Source: Escherichia coli (lineage in GTDB: Bacteria; Pseudomonadota; Gammaproteobacteria; Enterobacterales; Enterobacteriaceae). From it: a stretch of DNA of 64,000 nucleotides. The stretch lies in NCBI RefSeq assembly GCF_048403405.1, contig NZ_CP183129.1. The stretch is one strand, 5' to 3'. The position numbers and the translations under genes were made by a program. Within the stretch, counting starts at the first letter, position 1, and every line of letters begins with the position of its first letter. Positions 5,595 through 48,756 of this stretch are shown here, piece by piece. The notes beneath the pieces were generated by a model. That model searched no databases. It was not told the origin of the DNA and saw only the letters and a program-made list of their open reading frames with translations.

Positions 5595-5687
5595 GGTGAG
5601 GTGGCCGAGAGGCTGAAGGCGCTCCCCTGCTAAGGGAGTATGCGGTCAAAAGCTGCATCCGGGGTTCGAATCCCCGCCTCACCGCCA
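5595..5687 (+). tRNA. serV: tRNA-Ser (anticodon GCU)
   Basis: 93-nt cloverleaf with long variable arm, anticodon loop ctgctaa, ends in CCA; first gene of the cluster. Confidence 0.92.
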
Positions 5688-5690
5688 TTT

Positions 5691-5767
5691 GCATCCGTAG
5701 CTCAGCTGGATAGAGTACTCGGCTACGAACCGAGCGGTCGGAGGTTCGAATCCTCCCGGATGCACCA
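5691..5767 (+). tRNA. argV: tRNA-Arg (anticodon ACG)
   Basis: 77-nt sequence gcatccgtagctcagctggatagagtactcggctacgaaccgagcggtcggaggttcgaatcctcccggatgcacca; anticodon loop ctacgaa; copy name assigned by position. Confidence 0.9.
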
Positions 5768-5901
5768 TATTCTACGTACTTTCAGCGATGAAGGTATGGA
5801 AGAGGTGGCGGTAATAACCGCAGGCACCAGGGAGGATAACGTTGCTTTAGCAACGGCCCGAAGGGCGAGCCGCAAGGCGAGTAATCCTCCCGGATGCACC
5901 A
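5768..5901 (+). repeat. tRNA-Arg 3'-end-bearing paralogous element, copy A
   Basis: 134-nt element after the first tRNA-Arg, ending in a second copy of the tRNA-Arg 3' end (..tcctcccggatgcacca); paralogous to copy B at 6323-6455. Confidence 0.6.
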
Positions 5902-5965
5902 TCTCTTACTTGATACGGCTTTAGTAGCGGTATCAAAAAATCTGCAGTAAAGTAAGTTTCCCGAT

Positions 5966-6042
5966 GCATCCGTAGCTCAGCTGGATAGAGTACTCGGCTA
6001 CGAACCGAGCGGTCGGAGGTTCGAATCCTCCCGGATGCACCA
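5966..6042 (+). tRNA. argY: tRNA-Arg (anticodon ACG)
   Basis: Identical 77-nt tRNA-Arg sequence; copy name assigned by position. Confidence 0.88.
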
Positions 6043-6105
6043 TCTCTTACTTGATATGGCTTTAGTAGCGGTATCAATATCAGCAGTAAAATAAATTTTC
6101 CCGAT

Positions 6106-6182
6106 GCATCCGTAGCTCAGCTGGATAGAGTACTCGGCTACGAACCGAGCGGTCGGAGGTTCGAATCCTCCCGGATGCACCA
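6106..6182 (+). tRNA. argZ: tRNA-Arg (anticodon ACG)
   Basis: Identical 77-nt tRNA-Arg sequence; copy name assigned by position. Confidence 0.88.
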
Positions 6183-6245
6183 TCTCTTACTTGATATGGC
6201 TTTAGTAGCGATATCAATATCAGCAGTAAAATAAGTTTTCCCGAT

Positions 6246-6322
6246 GCATCCGTAGCTCAGCTGGATAGAGTACTCGGCTACGAACCGAGCGGTCGGAGGT
6301 TCGAATCCTCCCGGATGCACCA
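6246..6322 (+). tRNA. argQ: tRNA-Arg (anticodon ACG)
   Basis: Identical 77-nt tRNA-Arg sequence; copy name assigned by position. Confidence 0.88.
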
Positions 6323-9231: not shown

Positions 9232-9304
9232 AAAAAGGCCACTCGTGAGTGGCCAAAATTTCATCTCTGAATTCAGGGATGATGATAACAAATGCGCGTC
9301 TTTC
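9232..9304 (-). ncRNA. micA: MicA (SraD) small regulatory RNA
   Basis: Reverse complement of 9232-9304 reads gaaagacgcgcatttgttatcatcatccctgaattcagagatgaaattttggccactcacgagtggccttttt, which matches my recollection of the E. coli MicA sequence; lies in the gshA-luxS gap and ends in a terminator hairpin. Confidence 0.88.
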
Positions 9305-9310
9305 ATATAC

Positions 9311-9338
9311 TCAGACTCGCCTGGGAAGAAAGAGTTCA
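9311..9338 (-). promoter_or_regulatory. SigmaE-type promoter of micA
   Basis: On the minus strand gaactc (-35), 16-nt spacer, tctga (-10), 6 nt before the MicA 5' end; close to sigmaE consensus GGAACTT / TCTGA. Confidence 0.55.
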
Positions 9339-9372
9339 GAAAATTTTTAAAAAAATTACCGGAGGTGGCTAA

Positions 9373-9888
9373 ATGCCGTTGTTAGATAGCTTCACAGTCG
9401 ATCATACCCGGATGGAAGCGCCTGCAGTTCGGGTGGCGAAAACAATGAACACCCCGCATGGCGACGCAATCACCGTGTTCGATCTGCGCTTCTGCGTGCC
9501 GAACAAAGAAGTGATGCCAGAAAGAGGGATCCATACCCTGGAGCACCTGTTTGCTGGTTTTATGCGTAACCATCTTAACGGTAATGGCGTAGAGATTATC
9601 GATATCTCGCCAATGGGCTGCCGCACCGGTTTTTATATGAGTCTGATTGGTACGCCAGATGAGCAGCGTGTCGCTGATGCCTGGAAAGCGGCAATGGAGG
9701 ACGTGCTGAAAGTGCAGGATCAGAATCAGATCCCGGAACTGAACGTCTACCAGTGTGGCACTTACCAGATGCACTCGTTGCAGGAAGCACAGGATATTGC
9801 GCGTAGCATTCTGGAACGTGACGTGCGCATCAACAGCAACGAAGAACTGGCGCTGCCGAAAGAGAAGTTGCAGGAACTGCACATCTAG
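9373..9888 (+). CDS. luxS: S-ribosylhomocysteine lyase (autoinducer-2 synthase)
   Basis: 171-aa [24 protein letters not shown].. with HTLEH metal-binding motif. Confidence 0.96.
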
Positions 9889-9914
9889 TCAGTAAACTAT
9901 CTTCACAATTAATT

Positions 9915-9945
9915 GAAAAAAGCCAGTTCAAATGAACTGGCTTAG
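9915..9945. terminator. Bidirectional intrinsic terminator between convergent luxS and emrB
   Basis: Perfect 9-bp stem agccagttc/gaactggct with 4-nt loop, preceded by an A-run and followed by T-rich sequence. Confidence 0.6.
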
Positions 9946-9951
9946 TTGTAC

Positions 9952-43658: not shown

Positions 43659-46600
43659 ATGAACAGGACCAGTCCCCATTATTGTCGCCGCTCAGTACTT
43701 TCCTTATTGATATCTGCCTTGATATATGCTCCGCCCGTGATGGCGGCCTTTACTACTAATGTTATTGGTGTGGTAAACGATGAGACTGTAGATGGCAGTC
43801 AAAAAGTAGATGAACGAGGTACAACAAATAATACTCATATTATCAACCATGGCCAGCAGGATGTTTATGGTGGGATATCTAACGGAAGTATTATTGAATC
43901 TGGTGGATATCAAGATGTAGGAAGGCATAACAATTATATGGGGCAGTCTAATAATACAACCATTAACGGGGGCAGACAGTCAATTCATGACGGAGGGATT
44001 TCCACAGGTACAATAATTGAGAGTGGCAATCAGGACGTTTATACAGGTGGTATCAGCAATGGAACGACAATTAAGGGTGGTAATTCACACATAAGTGGGG
44101 GGACTGCGAATGGAACCATCATTGATGGTGGAGGGCAGACAGTAACAACTCAGGGGCATGTTGATGGTACAACGATAAATAAGTCCGGTTATCAGGACAT
44201 CACGCAAGGAAGTCTGGCGACGAACACAACCATAAATGGTGGTCGACAGTATGTTGAACAGAGCACAGTAGAAACAACCACCATTAAAAATGGCGGTGAG
44301 CAAAGAGTATATGAGAGCCGTGCGCTGGACACGACGATTGAAGGCGGAACTCAGTCTCTGAATAGTAAGTCAACGGCAAAAAATACTCAGATCTATTCTG
44401 GTGGTACGCAAATTGTTGATTACACCAGCACCTCGGATGTTATTGAAGTTTATTCCGGTGGCGTGCTTGATGTTAGTGGTGGTACGGCAACAAATGTTAC
44501 CCAGCACGATGGTGCAATTTTAAAAACAAACACTAACGGTACGACGGTGAGCGGTACGAATAGTGAAGGGGCATTCTCCATCCACAATACCGTGGCAGAG
44601 AATGTGTTGCTGGAAAACGGTGGTCATTTAGACATAAACGCATATGGTTCGGCAAATAAGACGATTATTAAAGATAAAGGAACAATATCAGTTTTAACGA
44701 ATGCTAAAGCTGATGCGACCCGAATAGATAATGGCGGCGTTATGGATGTTGCCGGAAACGCGACAAATACCATAATTAATGGTGGCACACAGAATATTAA
44801 TAATTATGGTATTGCCACGGGCACCAATATCAACAGCGGAACACAAAATATCAAGAGCGGCGGGAAAGCTGACACGACAAATATATCCTCTGGGAGCCGG
44901 CAGGTTGTTGAGAAAGATGGTACGGCAACTGGCAGCAATATTAGCGCCGGAGGCTCGCTGATTGTCTATACCGGCGGTATTGCACATGGGGTTAACCAGG
45001 AGACGGGCAGTGCTTTAGTTGCCAACACGGGCGCAGGGACTGATATCGAAGGATACAATAAGCTCTCTCACTTCACTATTACCGGAGGTGAGGCTAATTA
45101 TGTTGTGCTGGAAAATACCGGCGAACTGACGGTAATGGCTAAAACCTCGGCGAAAAATACTACCATTGATGCTGGCGGTAAGCTGATTGTCCAGAAGGAG
45201 GCTAAAACAGATAGCACCAGACTTAATAATGGTGGCGTTCTGGAGGTTCAGGACGGTGGTGAGGCTAAGCATGTTGAGCAGCAATCCGGCGGCGCATTAA
45301 TTGCTTCCACGACCTCCGGAACACTTATCGAAGGAACCAACAGTTATGGTGATGCTTTCTACATCAGGAATTCAGAAGCTAAAAATGTAGTGCTGGAAAA
45401 CGCTGGCTCATTAACAGTCGTCACTGGTTCCCGGGCAGTTGACACGATTATTAATGCCAACGGCAAAATGGATGTTTATGGAAAAGATGTTGGTACTGTA
45501 CTTAATAGTGCTGGTACCCAAACAATATATGCCAGTGCCACTTCTGAAAAAGCAAATATCAAAGGTGGCAAGCAAACGGTATATGGTTTAGCCACTGAGG
45601 CAAATATCGAAAGTGGTGAACAAATTGTTGATGGTGGGTCAGCAGATAAAACGCACATCAATGGCGGTACGCAAACCGTTCAGAATTATGGTAAGGCGAT
45701 CAATACCGATATCGTCTCTGGCCTACAACAAATTATGGTAAACGGGACAACGGAAGGTTCCATTATTAATGGCGGTTCACAGGTAGTTAATGAGGGCGGT
45801 CTGGCTGAAAACTCGGTGCTTAATGACGGCGGCACTCTCGATGTGCGGGAGAAAGGCAGCGCAACGGGGATACAGCAAAGTAGCCAGGGCGCGTTGGTTG
45901 CAACCACCAGAGCGACGCGGGTCACAGGGACACGCGCTGATGGCGTCGCGTTCAGCATTGAGCAGGATGCGGCGAACAATATCCTGCTGGCAAATGGCGG
46001 CGTGTTAACCGTGGAGTCAGACACCACTTCCGCCAAAACACAGGTCAATGCGGGCGGGCGGGAGATCGTCAAAACAAAAGCCACTGCGACAGGCACGACG
46101 CTCACCGGCGGCGAACAAATCGTCGAGGGGGTGGCGAATGAGACAACGATTAACGACGGCGGAATACAAACAGTTTCGGCTAACGGTGAGGCAGTAAAAA
46201 CAACGATTAATGAAGGCGGTACGCTGACAGTCAACGATAATGGCAAAGCGACAGATATCATCCAGAACAGCGGTGCCGCTCTCCAGACGAGCACGGCTAA
46301 CGGTATTGAAATCAGCGGTACTCACCAGTACGGCACCTTTTCCATTGCCGGAAATTTAGCGACCAATGCGTTGCTGGAAAATGGCGGTAATTTATTGGTA
46401 TTAGCAGGTACCGAAGCCCGTGACTCCACGGTTGGCAAGGGTGGTGCAATACAAAACCTGGGTCAGGACTTCGCCACAAAGGTTAATTCTGGTGGACAAT
46501 ATACCCTCGGTCGGTCAAAAGATGAGTTTCAGGCTTTGGCCCGGGCAGAAGATCTACAGATCGCTGGCGGGACGGCAATCGTCTACGCAGGTACGCTGGC

Positions 46601-48233
46601 GGATGCATCGGTCAGTGGCGCGACAGGAAGCCTGTCGTTAATGACGCCACGGGATAATGTTACGCCAGTTAAACTTGAAGGGGTGGTCCGGATTACCGAT
46701 AGCGCGACATTAACTATCGGAAATGGCGTCGATACGACGCTTGCCGACCTGACGGCTGCCAGTCGGGGCAGTGTCTGGCTTAACAGCAATAATTCCTGTG
46801 CAGGCACCAGCAACTGCGAATATAGAGTAAACAGTTTACTCCTCAACGACGGTGATGTTTATTTATCAGCACAAACAGCAGCGCCTGCCACAACTAACGG
46901 TATCTACAATACGCTGACCACCAGTGAACTTTCCGGCAGCGGTAATTTCTACCTGCATACCAACGTTGCAGGCTCCCGGGGCGATCAACTGGTCGTCAAC
47001 AACAACGCCACTGGCAATTTTAAAATCTTTGTTCAGGATACCGGCGTCAGCCCTCAGTCTGACGACGCGATGACGCTGGTGAAAACAGGGGGAGGGGATG
47101 CTTCGTTTACGCTGGGTAATACCGGCGGTTTCGTTGATCTTGGGACCTATGAGTATGTCCTGAAAAGCGACGGCAACAGCAACTGGAACCTGACCAATGA
47201 TGTCAAACCCAACCCGGACCCCAACCCAAATCCGAAACCGGATCCAAAACCAGACCCAAAACCGGATCCGAAACCAGACCCGACTCCCGATCCAACGCCG
47301 ACACCCGTCCCGGAGAAACGCATCACGCCTTCTACGGCAGCCGTACTCAATATGGCAGCAACATTACCGTTGGTCTTTGATGCTGAGCTAAACAGTATTC
47401 GCGAGCGGTTGAACATAATGAAAGCGAGTCCACACAACAATAATGTCTGGGGGACGACGTATAACACCCGTAATAATGTCACCACCGATGCGGGTGCCGG
47501 GTTTGAGCAGACGCTGACCGGAATGACGGTGGGGATCGATAGCCGTAATGATATTCCTGAGGGGATTGCGACGCTGGGCGCTTTTATGGGTTATTCCCAT
47601 TCACATATTGGTTTTGATCGTGGAGGGCATGGCAGTGTGGGCAGTTATTCTCTGGGGGGCTATGCCAGCTGGGAACATGAAAGTGGTTTCTATCTGGACG
47701 GTATCGTGAAGCTGAACCGCTTTGAAAGTAACGTAGCCGGTAAAATGAGCAGCGGTGGAGCCGCCAACGGCAGTTATCGCAGCAACGGGCTGGGCGGTCA
47801 CATTGAAACCGGGATGCGATTTACCGATGGTAACTGGAACCTGACGCCGTATGCATCGTTAACGGGGTTCACCGCTGATAACCCCGAATATCATTTATCC
47901 AATGGCATGGAATCGAAATCAGTCGATACCCGTAGTATATATCGTGAACTGGGCGCAACGCTGAGTTACAACATGCGTCTGGGGAACGGCATGGAAGTTG
48001 AGCCGTGGCTGAAGGCGGCTGTGCGCAAAGAATTTGTCGATGATAACCGGGTGAAAGTGAATAATGACGGTAATTTTGTCAATGATTTGTCGGGCAGACG
48101 TGGAATATACCAGGCAGGTATTAAAGCCTCATTCAGCAGTACGTTAAGCGGACATCTCGGGGTGGGGTATAGCCATGGTGCCGGTGTGGAATCCCCGTGG
48201 AACGCGGTGGCTGGTGCGAACTGGTCGTTCTGA
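43659..48233 (+). CDS. ypjA: Adhesin-like autotransporter (type Va secretion) with repetitive passenger domain
   Basis: ORF track 43530-48233; likely start ATG 43659 (or 43650) giving signal peptide MNRTSPHYCRRSVLSLLISALIYAPPVMA; Gly/Thr/Asn-rich repetitive passenger, Pro-rich PNPDPNPNPKPDPKPDP linker (about 47200-47310) and C-terminal beta-barrel ending ..AGANWSF. Confidence 0.75.
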   Translation: MNRTSPHYCRRSVLSLLISALIYAPPVMAAFTTNVIGVVNDETVDGSQKVDERGTTNNTHIINHGQQDVYGGISNGSIIESGGYQDVGRHNNYMGQSNNTTINGGRQSIHDGGISTGTIIESGNQDVYTGGISNGTTIKGGNSHISGGTANGTIIDGGGQTVTTQGHVDGTTINKSGYQDITQGSLATNTTINGGRQYVEQSTVETTTIKNGGEQRVYESRALDTTIEGGTQSLNSKSTAKNTQIYSGGTQIVDYTSTSDVIEVYSGGVLDVSGGTATNVTQHDGAILKTNTNGTTVSGTNSEGAFSIHNTVAENVLLENGGHLDINAYGSANKTIIKDKGTISVLTNAKADATRIDNGGVMDVAGNATNTIINGGTQNINNYGIATGTNINSGTQNIKSGGKADTTNISSGSRQVVEKDGTATGSNISAGGSLIVYTGGIAHGVNQETGSALVANTGAGTDIEGYNKLSHFTITGGEANYVVLENTGELTVMAKTSAKNTTIDAGGKLIVQKEAKTDSTRLNNGGVLEVQDGGEAKHVEQQSGGALIASTTSGTLIEGTNSYGDAFYIRNSEAKNVVLENAGSLTVVTGSRAVDTIINANGKMDVYGKDVGTVLNSAGTQTIYASATSEKANIKGGKQTVYGLATEANIESGEQIVDGGSADKTHINGGTQTVQNYGKAINTDIVSGLQQIMVNGTTEGSIINGGSQVVNEGGLAENSVLNDGGTLDVREKGSATGIQQSSQGALVATTRATRVTGTRADGVAFSIEQDAANNILLANGGVLTVESDTTSAKTQVNAGGREIVKTKATATGTTLTGGEQIVEGVANETTINDGGIQTVSANGEAVKTTINEGGTLTVNDNGKATDIIQNSGAALQTSTANGIEISGTHQYGTFSIAGNLATNALLENGGNLLVLAGTEARDSTVGKGGAIQNLGQDFATKVNSGGQYTLGRSKDEFQALARAEDLQIAGGTAIVYAGTLADASVSGATGSLSLMTPRDNVTPVKLEGVVRITDSATLTIGNGVDTTLADLTAASRGSVWLNSNNSCAGTSNCEYRVNSLLLNDGDVYLSAQTAAPATTNGIYNTLTTSELSGSGNFYLHTNVAGSRGDQLVVNNNATGNFKIFVQDTGVSPQSDDAMTLVKTGGGDASFTLGNTGGFVDLGTYEYVLKSDGNSNWNLTNDVKPNPDPNPNPKPDPKPDPKPDPKPDPTPDPTPTPVPEKRITPSTAAVLNMAATLPLVFDAELNSIRERLNIMKASPHNNNVWGTTYNTRNNVTTDAGAGFEQTLTGMTVGIDSRNDIPEGIATLGAFMGYSHSHIGFDRGGHGSVGSYSLGGYASWEHESGFYLDGIVKLNRFESNVAGKMSSGGAANGSYRSNGLGGHIETGMRFTDGNWNLTPYASLTGFTADNPEYHLSNGMESKSVDTRSIYRELGATLSYNMRLGNGMEVEPWLKAAVRKEFVDDNRVKVNNDGNFVNDLSGRRGIYQAGIKASFSSTLSGHLGVGYSHGAGVESPWNAVAGANWSF

Positions 48234-48244
48234 CCATCAACGAA

Positions 48245-48267
48245 AAAGCCCACATCTGTGGGCTTTC
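48245..48267 (+). terminator. Candidate intrinsic terminator after ypjA
   Basis: aaaaagcccacatctgtgggcttt hairpin (8-bp stem) 12 nt after the ypjA stop. Confidence 0.45.
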
Positions 48268-48393
48268 ATATCACCAAGAGCCGCGGCTCCTTTGCGTATC
48301 CTTTTATGTCTCCTCACCGTCTGGTCGGTGTCTTGCTGAGACTTCTAACTTCCTGTTTTTGTTGGTGTTGTCCTTGCACCGTCCAATCATGAT

Positions 48394-48756
48394 TGGTGGA
48401 GCTGGCGGGAGTTGAACCCGCGTCCGAAATTCCTACGTCCTCGGTACTACATGCTTAGTCAGTCTTTACATTCGCTTGCCAGCTGCGGACGGACACGCCA
48501 CTAACAAACTAGCCTGATTAAGTTTTAACGCTTCAACCCCAGGCAGGGCTTCCACGCGATCTCTTTTGGGTTTGACCTCTCTTGATCCCCGTCCTAAGAG
48601 CGGAGGCTAGGGAGAGAGGGCTCTAAGCAGGTTATTAAGCTGCTAAAGCGTAGTTTTCGTCGTTTGCGACTATTTTTTGCGGCTTTTTACGAGGCCAACC
48701 GCCCCTCGGCATGCACCTTGGGTTTCGCAAATCCCGTCGAATCCAGAATCAGCCCC
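48394..48756 (-). ncRNA. ssrA: tmRNA (SsrA, 10Sa RNA)
   Basis: 363 nt; minus-strand sequence begins ggggctgattctggattcgacggg and ends ..ctcccgccagctccacca; contains the tag ORF gcaaacgacgaaaactacgctttagcagcttaa (ANDENYALAA). Confidence 0.97.

Follow-up and report, generated by a model that had tools for sequence, protein, structure and literature searches.

What is encoded by the 4.6-kb open frame near the end of a 64,000-nucleotide stretch of Escherichia coli DNA (assembly GCF_048403405.1, contig NZ_CP183129.1; the whole stretch is called the window in the following), is the gene intact, and can the proline-rich repeat inside it be trusted as assembled? An earlier reading made from the letters of the DNA (the sequence-only reading) had proposed a large autotransporter and had cautioned about the repeat. 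The analysis presented here identifies the feature, with a probability of about 0.95, as the chromosomal gene ypjA, termed ehaD in the nomenclature of enterohemorrhagic E. coli (EHEC), whose product is an adhesin, namely a classical, monomeric autotransporter of type Va belonging to the AIDA-I/Ag43 group. The gene is already known, that is, it is a named and earlier studied E. coli gene that is found in public annotated genomes at 100% identity.

Identity and domain architecture of the ypjA/ehaD product

A single open frame surrounds ypjA/ehaD on the plus strand (43530-48233). The possible starts GTG 43530 and in-frame ATG 43650 were dropped in favor of ATG 43659. The latter is preferred because of its spacing from a Shine-Dalgarno-like AGAGGA (43645-43650, plus strand, 8 nt before the ATG by direct reading of the sequence), because a canonical signal peptide begins there and because it is the start annotated in RefSeq, position 9260 of the E. 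coli MS 69-1 locus mapping onto window position 43659. The coding sequence (43659-48233, plus strand) comprises 1524 codons plus stop, is 100% identical to the RefSeq coding sequence WP_114281949.1 and contains no internal stop codon; neither a frameshift nor a stop, which would speak against an intact gene, interrupts the frame in the window. Antisense open reading frames of 85-202 residues also occur within ypjA, the longest at 45686-46294 on the minus strand, and most likely result from the composition of the Gly/Thr-rich repeats instead of being genes.

When positions 43400-48400 were compared by megablast with 5,426 complete E. coli genomes, full-length matches at 100.0% identity were obtained for MS 69-1, TUM1226, GN02461, 4621, TUM14771 and others, all of which carry the RefSeq annotation "ypjA: adhesin-like autotransporter YpjA/EhaD". 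At least six complete genomes, each assembled independently, share this 5-kb sequence at 100% identity. Protein identity amounts to 95.3% over 1526 columns with YpjA from strain K-12 (b2647), to 95.7% with the intact allele of O145:H28 strain RM12761 and to 96.3% with that of SMS-3-5, and the arrangement ileY - ypjCB - pinH remnant - ypjA is common to the window and K-12. A full-length, high-identity match to K-12 b2647 and EHEC EhaD at a syntenic locus is what is expected of a bona fide orthologue, and nothing contradicts the identification as ypjA/ehaD, a name that the sequence-only reading had not arrived at.

As judged from its sequence, the protein combines this orthology with the complete domain set of a type Va autotransporter. 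The N-terminal Sec signal peptide typical of this type can be read directly from residues 1-29 (43659-43745, plus strand): in MNRTSPHYCRRSVLSLLISALIYAPPVMA, followed by AFTT, the n-region is basic, the core is hydrophobic and positions -3 to -1 are occupied by V-M-A, such that cleavage is predicted between VMA and AF. A signal peptide of 29 residues has also been tabulated for K-12 YpjA (PMC13101318). The passenger (residues 30-1056; 43746-46826, plus strand) is composed of units of about 18-19 residues and is predicted to fold into a right-handed beta-helix, on the evidence of Pfam, TIGR04415, autocorrelation and sequence matches to solved passengers. The degenerate Gly/Thr/Asn-rich repeats that had been claimed for it are borne out by its composition (G 15%, T 13%, N 9%), by ten Pfam AIDA matches (PF16168, E 2.4e-140), by 13 strand-loop-strand repeats of NCBIfam TIGR04415 and by peaks of BLOSUM autocorrelation at lags 18 (z = 9.9) and 19 (z = 8.7, both relative to 100 shuffles) that recur as harmonics at 35-37 and 54. 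Tandem AIDA repeats of about 19 residues characterize AIDA-I-type adhesin passengers. The periodicity of 18-19 residues is far beyond chance and is the signature expected of a beta-helix of AIDA-type rungs, of which the 1027-residue passenger would by simple arithmetic hold about 55. Five copies of a longer module, GG.A..V.Q..GA...(S/T)T...(V/I).GTN..G.F.I.....N.(L/V)LEN.G.L.V, overlie the rungs; four were found by pattern match and the fifth, near residue 905, by reading the translation. Regions with three of these copies align to solved AIDA-I/Ag43 passenger sequences, and the closest solved relatives of the passenger by sequence are AIDA-I (7ko9, E 3.5e-34), Ag43 (7kob, 7koh and 4kh3) and TibA (4q1q).

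The C-terminal end of the beta-helical passenger is the place of the autochaperone in type Va proteins, and residues 1057-1179 (46827-47195, plus strand) indeed match the Pfam family Pertactin (PF03212; E 2.7e-46, 157 bits against a cut-off of 22) as well as the solved structures of pertactin (1dab) and IgA1 protease (3h09) by sequence. This pertactin-type domain had been overlooked in the sequence-only reading. The autochaperone of EhaD has been reported to fall within a cluster of autotransporter autochaperone domains (PMC5767081). It is followed by a Pro-rich spacer (residues 1183-1219; 47205-47315, plus strand) of the sequence KPNPDPNPNPKPDPKPDPKPDPKPDPTPDPTPTPVPE, delimited by sequence, Tandem Repeats Finder and allele alignment, in which X-Pro alternates (X = K, N, D, T, V) over 37 residues with a Pro content of 49%; a Pro-rich linker had accurately been placed at about 47200-47310. 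Directly after the spacer a pore helix is predicted (KRITPSTAAVLNMAATLPLVFDAELNSIRERL...). The predicted alpha-helical pore linker (KRITPSTAAVLNMAATLPLVFDAELNSIRERLNIMK..., residues 1220-1262; 47316-47444, plus strand) is assigned approximate boundaries from its location, which is flanked by the spacer and PF03797; it falls inside the match to NCBIfam TIGR01414 and partly inside the alignment with BrkA, which begins at residue 1242.

Residues 1263-1524 (47445-48230, plus strand), ending in ...ANWSF, constitute the autotransporter beta-barrel. The Pfam family Autotransporter (PF03797) matches residues 1263-1502 (E 8.3e-46; 157 bits, cut-off 26) and TIGR01414 residues 1083-1524 (323.6 bits, cut-off 16). 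The full length of the BrkA translocator (3qq2) can be aligned to residues 1242-1524, and Vag8 (7akv) matches as well. The Phe of the C-terminal ...NWSF is the usual aromatic end of outer-membrane barrels, so that a C-terminal barrel closing on an aromatic residue, a further mark of type Va proteins, is present. The translocator domain predicted earlier was thus recovered by profile search (PF03797, TIGR01414), and profiles together with the RefSeq annotation confirm the large autotransporter with all its named parts, i.e. signal peptide, passenger, linker and barrel.

Spacer alleles, function and alternative readings

Strain-dependent repeat number and a risk of assembly collapse had both been attributed to the linker. 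Tandem Repeats Finder reports imperfect periods of 12 and 24 nt at 47207-47295. In an alignment of eight alleles, the spacer length is 37 residues for the window, SMS-3-5, CRE78 and 2012C-4227, 39 for K-12 and 41 for O145:H28 and two O157:H7 strains, owing to in-frame indels within the spacer that amount to 6 or 12 nt; elsewhere in the gene, SMS-3-5 and 2012C-4227 share a 6-nt deletion (44632), the only further in-frame indel. Forty records were furthermore taken at even steps through the 2,560 records that match an 801-nt query. The query spans 801 nt in 11 of them, 807 nt in 19 and 813 nt in six, and of the remaining four, one is a frameshifted allele shorter by 1 nt, one lacks 8 nt and two match in part only. 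Repeat number does vary between strains, as had been suggested, but the variation is small and in frame. It looks discrete and lineage-linked rather than hypermutable, and a hypervariable linker is ruled out by allele differences of only 6-12 nt. The three lengths might tune the reach of the beta-helix through lipopolysaccharide (LPS) or capsule and co-vary with O-antigen or lineage instead of reflecting neutral slippage, and, in a related idea, some strains might use an unlinked heptosyltransferase to glycosylate the TIGR04415 repeats; the evidence supports neither, and we consider both improbable.

Established knowledge of type Va secretion suggests how the protein would reach the cell surface. 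The 29-residue signal peptide would direct the precursor through Sec, and the C-terminal ~260 residues would enter the outer membrane with the assistance of Bam and form a 12-stranded beta-barrel whose pore holds the alpha-helix that precedes it. The passenger would exit C-terminus first, translocation proceeding towards the N-terminus, whereby the pertactin-type autochaperone would fold first and nucleate or template the stacking of the ~55 rungs into a long beta-helix. We infer that the 37-residue X-Pro spacer most likely forms an extended, non-folding stalk outside the barrel that keeps the beta-helix clear of both the barrel and the LPS layer. Upon expression of the gene, the exposed beta-helix would promote surface adhesion and biofilm formation.

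This adhesive role is suggested by analogy with K-12 YpjA and O157 EhaD as described in the literature, the functional statements deriving from reviews that cite Roux et al. (2005). A part in initial adhesion and in the formation of biofilms has been ascribed to YfaL, YpjA and YcgV (PMC3796261, citing Roux et al., 2005), and ehaD is among the autotransporters of E. coli that produces Shiga toxin (STEC) that are associated with biofilm formation (PMC4076661; PMC12547504). YpjA has been grouped with the biofilm-forming autotransporters Ag43, AIDA-I and TibA and is predicted to be beta-helical, mechanism and structure being unpublished (PMC9289746), and EhaD has been placed in the AIDA-I family adjoining TibA (PMC12399667). 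YpjA has also been used as a scaffold for surface display (PMC13101318).

Several observations limit what can be said about function for the gene in the window. The NCBIfam equivalog models for Ag43, AIDA-I and BafA score 338 against a cut-off of 1200, 270 against 1200 and 285 against 700, respectively. By these scores YpjA is a relative of Ag43, AIDA-I and BafA and not a member of those specific families, and because the values are far under the equivalog cut-offs, self-association, heptosylation and autocleavage are not simply transferable. A simple sigma-70 scan of ~400 nt upstream of the start revealed no promoter-like site on the plus strand, which fits a poorly expressed gene and proves nothing. 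Finally, disrupted alleles are found in several strains, and ypjA is therefore dispensable. A phase-variation switch of the agn43 type, which consists of three GATC sites with OxyR, is not indicated either, only one GATC (43300) being present in the 410 nt upstream. For K-12, a genomic SELEX (systematic evolution of ligands by exponential enrichment) study found a binding peak of the sigma-S holoenzyme in the ypjA-ileY intergenic region.

Alternative readings of the locus concern the assembly, the nature of the passenger and the activity of the gene. If the Pro-rich repeat were mis-assembled, that is collapsed or expanded, the true gene would differ from the window, a suspicion that is fed by the tandem 12/24-nt structure and by the length variation among strains. 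The repeat is, however, just ~110 nt long and its imperfect copies match by only 74-77%, so that ordinary reads span it; the identical 5 kb recurs in the independent complete assemblies mentioned above, every spacer length difference among the fetched alleles is in frame and the 40-record sample, disrupted and partial records aside, falls into three in-frame classes. No sign of collapse at the spacer emerged from the allele alignment, the sample or the identical genomes. Since the spacer occurs in only three small in-frame length classes it gives no ground to distrust the assembly, and the earlier concern about collapse has to be dropped, mis-assembly being extremely improbable. Hardly any credence can be given, too, to the proposal of a passenger that acts as a secreted enzyme or toxin (a SPATE-like protease, SPATE standing for serine protease autotransporters of Enterobacteriaceae, a lipase or an esterase) and not as an adhesin. 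It draws solely on the general diversity of autotransporter passengers, whereas scans with Pfam and NCBIfam found no peptidase S6/S8 or lipase domain and returned only AIDA, Pertactin and barrel matches plus low-complexity matches in the spacer (Trypan_PARP, TonB), and the solved relatives of the passenger are, without exception, beta-helices of adhesins.

It is possible, though in our view doubtful, that ypjA is intact yet functionally silent here, a cryptic, horizontally acquired remnant heading for decay. The ileY-ypjA region is AT-rich (GC content 0.32-0.45 versus ~0.51 in the flanks) and holds a recombinase (pinH) remnant, and the sigma-70 scan points in the same direction. In the 2005 work of Roux and co-workers an inserted constitutive promoter was reportedly needed for phenotypes. 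At least 80% of the 5-kb query is present in ~45% of the 5,426 complete genomes, the linker region in ~47% and a mid-passenger segment in ~52%; ypjA is therefore accessory. Furthermore, four of the eight fetched alleles carry frameshifts or stops and are annotated as pseudogenes, namely those of O157:H7 N8B7-2 (a 1-nt deletion), O157:H7 F8492 (an 8-nt deletion at a position matching window 47064), CRE78 (two 1-nt deletions) and 2012C-4227 (a nonsense codon at codon 556). In N8B7-2 and CRE78, all three 1-nt losses fall on G-runs and may be sequencing errors of the long-read homopolymer kind; genuine mutations are more probable in the case of the 8-nt deletion and the nonsense codon. On the other hand, the 4.6-kb frame is wholly open here, the 5-kb sequence recurs unchanged in several genomes, and in intact alleles the autochaperone and the barrel are the most conserved folded domains (97-100%) and the passenger the least conserved (~95%), which suggests purifying selection on the secretion machinery. 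We retain the reading of ypjA as an intact gene for an adhesin-type autotransporter. Beyond correct annotation this has little significance, YpjA/EhaD being a catalogued accessory adhesin that is included in typing schemes for E. coli adhesins (adhesiomeR; STEC comparative genomics); useful outcomes are that the ypjA allele in the window is intact and that its spacer, as set out above, does not cast doubt on the assembly.

The neighborhood of ypjA

The genes around ypjA are arranged in the order gabD - lhgO - glaH - alpha-amylase-family gene - ileY - ypjCB - pinH remnant - ypjA - ssrA - smpB. From the alpha-amylase-family gene to ypjA the GC content drops to ~0.36-0.42. The former (37625-39877, minus strand) encodes a glycosyl hydrolase, carries the annotation of an intact gene in the near-identical MS 69-1 and is the intact counterpart of the K-12 pseudogene ygaQ. 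The tRNA gene ileY (40437-40512) is called tRNA-Met(CAT) by ARAGORN and tRNA-Ile(CAU) in RefSeq. It is followed by an intact ypjCB of 484 residues (41269-42723, plus strand; DUF5507 + DUF5508; NCBIfam NF050179, 962 bits), which resides in very AT-rich DNA (GC ~0.32-0.35). In K-12 this gene is split into ypjC and ypjB, and in several other strains it is frameshifted or has an internal stop. A remnant of the recombinase gene pinH (43084-43251, plus strand), a pseudogene in K-12, and a 39-codon open reading frame for a "hypothetical protein" (43475-43594, plus strand), annotated as an ATPase fragment in one strain, are probably debris of an old mobile element. The AT-rich stretch from ileY to ypjA is consistent with an old horizontal acquisition.

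On the other side, the transfer-messenger RNA gene ssrA (48394-48756, minus strand; tag peptide ANDENYALAA) is convergent with ypjA and located 160 nt past its stop codon. In K-12, the 22-kb prophage CP4-57 sits between ssrA and ypjA. The 24 bp at window positions 48393-48416 align to both ends of CP4-57 in K-12 and therefore represent an unoccupied attachment site, ypjA being a conserved flank and not prophage cargo. O157:H7 and O145:H28 carry different integrated elements between ypjA and ssrA. The locus accordingly documents the empty state of the ssrA integration hot spot beside ypjA.

Over the pieces compared, the window is 99.98-99.996% identical to MS 69-1. The sole structural difference is a 707-bp IS200C between luxS and emrB that the window lacks (window 9942-9949; MS 69-1 locus 9235-9941). 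The source of the window is a very close relative of MS 69-1 or else another isolate from its lineage. Further away, the serV-argVYZQ cluster (5595-6322) consists of tRNA-Ser(GCU) and four tandem tRNA-Arg(ACG) genes; an overlapping minus-strand tRNA-Arg(TCG) that ARAGORN also calls at 5711-5782 is probably a false call.

Comparison with known systems

The spacer invites comparison with the (Glu-Pro)n(Lys-Pro)n spacer of TonB. The TonB model matches residues 1183-1220 weakly, driven by composition and far under its cut-off (E 9e-4), and there is no homology past composition; moreover, the spacer of TonB spans the periplasm while that of YpjA would be located outside the outer membrane. By analogy, the YpjA spacer is likely to be an extended polyproline-like rod resembling that of TonB. 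Pertactin, BrkA and Vag8 from Bordetella have an autochaperone region and a translocator that are homologous to those of YpjA but differ in the type of passenger repeat and in the host. Pertactin also possesses Pro-rich repeat regions that vary between strains.

With Ag43, AIDA-I and TibA, the self-associating autotransporters (SAATs), YpjA shares the type Va architecture, the AIDA repeat of ~19 residues, TIGR04415, a pertactin-like autochaperone and the 12-strand barrel family, although with 1524 residues it is much longer. In aah-aidA and tibC-tibA a heptosyltransferase gene adjoins the autotransporter gene. Between ileY and ssrA, the interval searched, no glycosyltransferase or heptosyltransferase is annotated; TIGR04415 repeats of the target type are present in YpjA.

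The closest counterparts are YpjA from K-12 and EhaD from O157:H7, which are products of the same gene with the same domain order in the same neighborhood (ileY - ypjCB - pinH' - ypjA). They differ from the protein studied here in spacer length, 37 residues being replaced by 39 in K-12 and by 41 in O157/O145, and in scattered substitutions mainly in the passenger (~94.5% identity). The adjacent ssrA site, which is empty here, is occupied by the 22-kb CP4-57 in K-12 and by other integrated elements in O157/O145.

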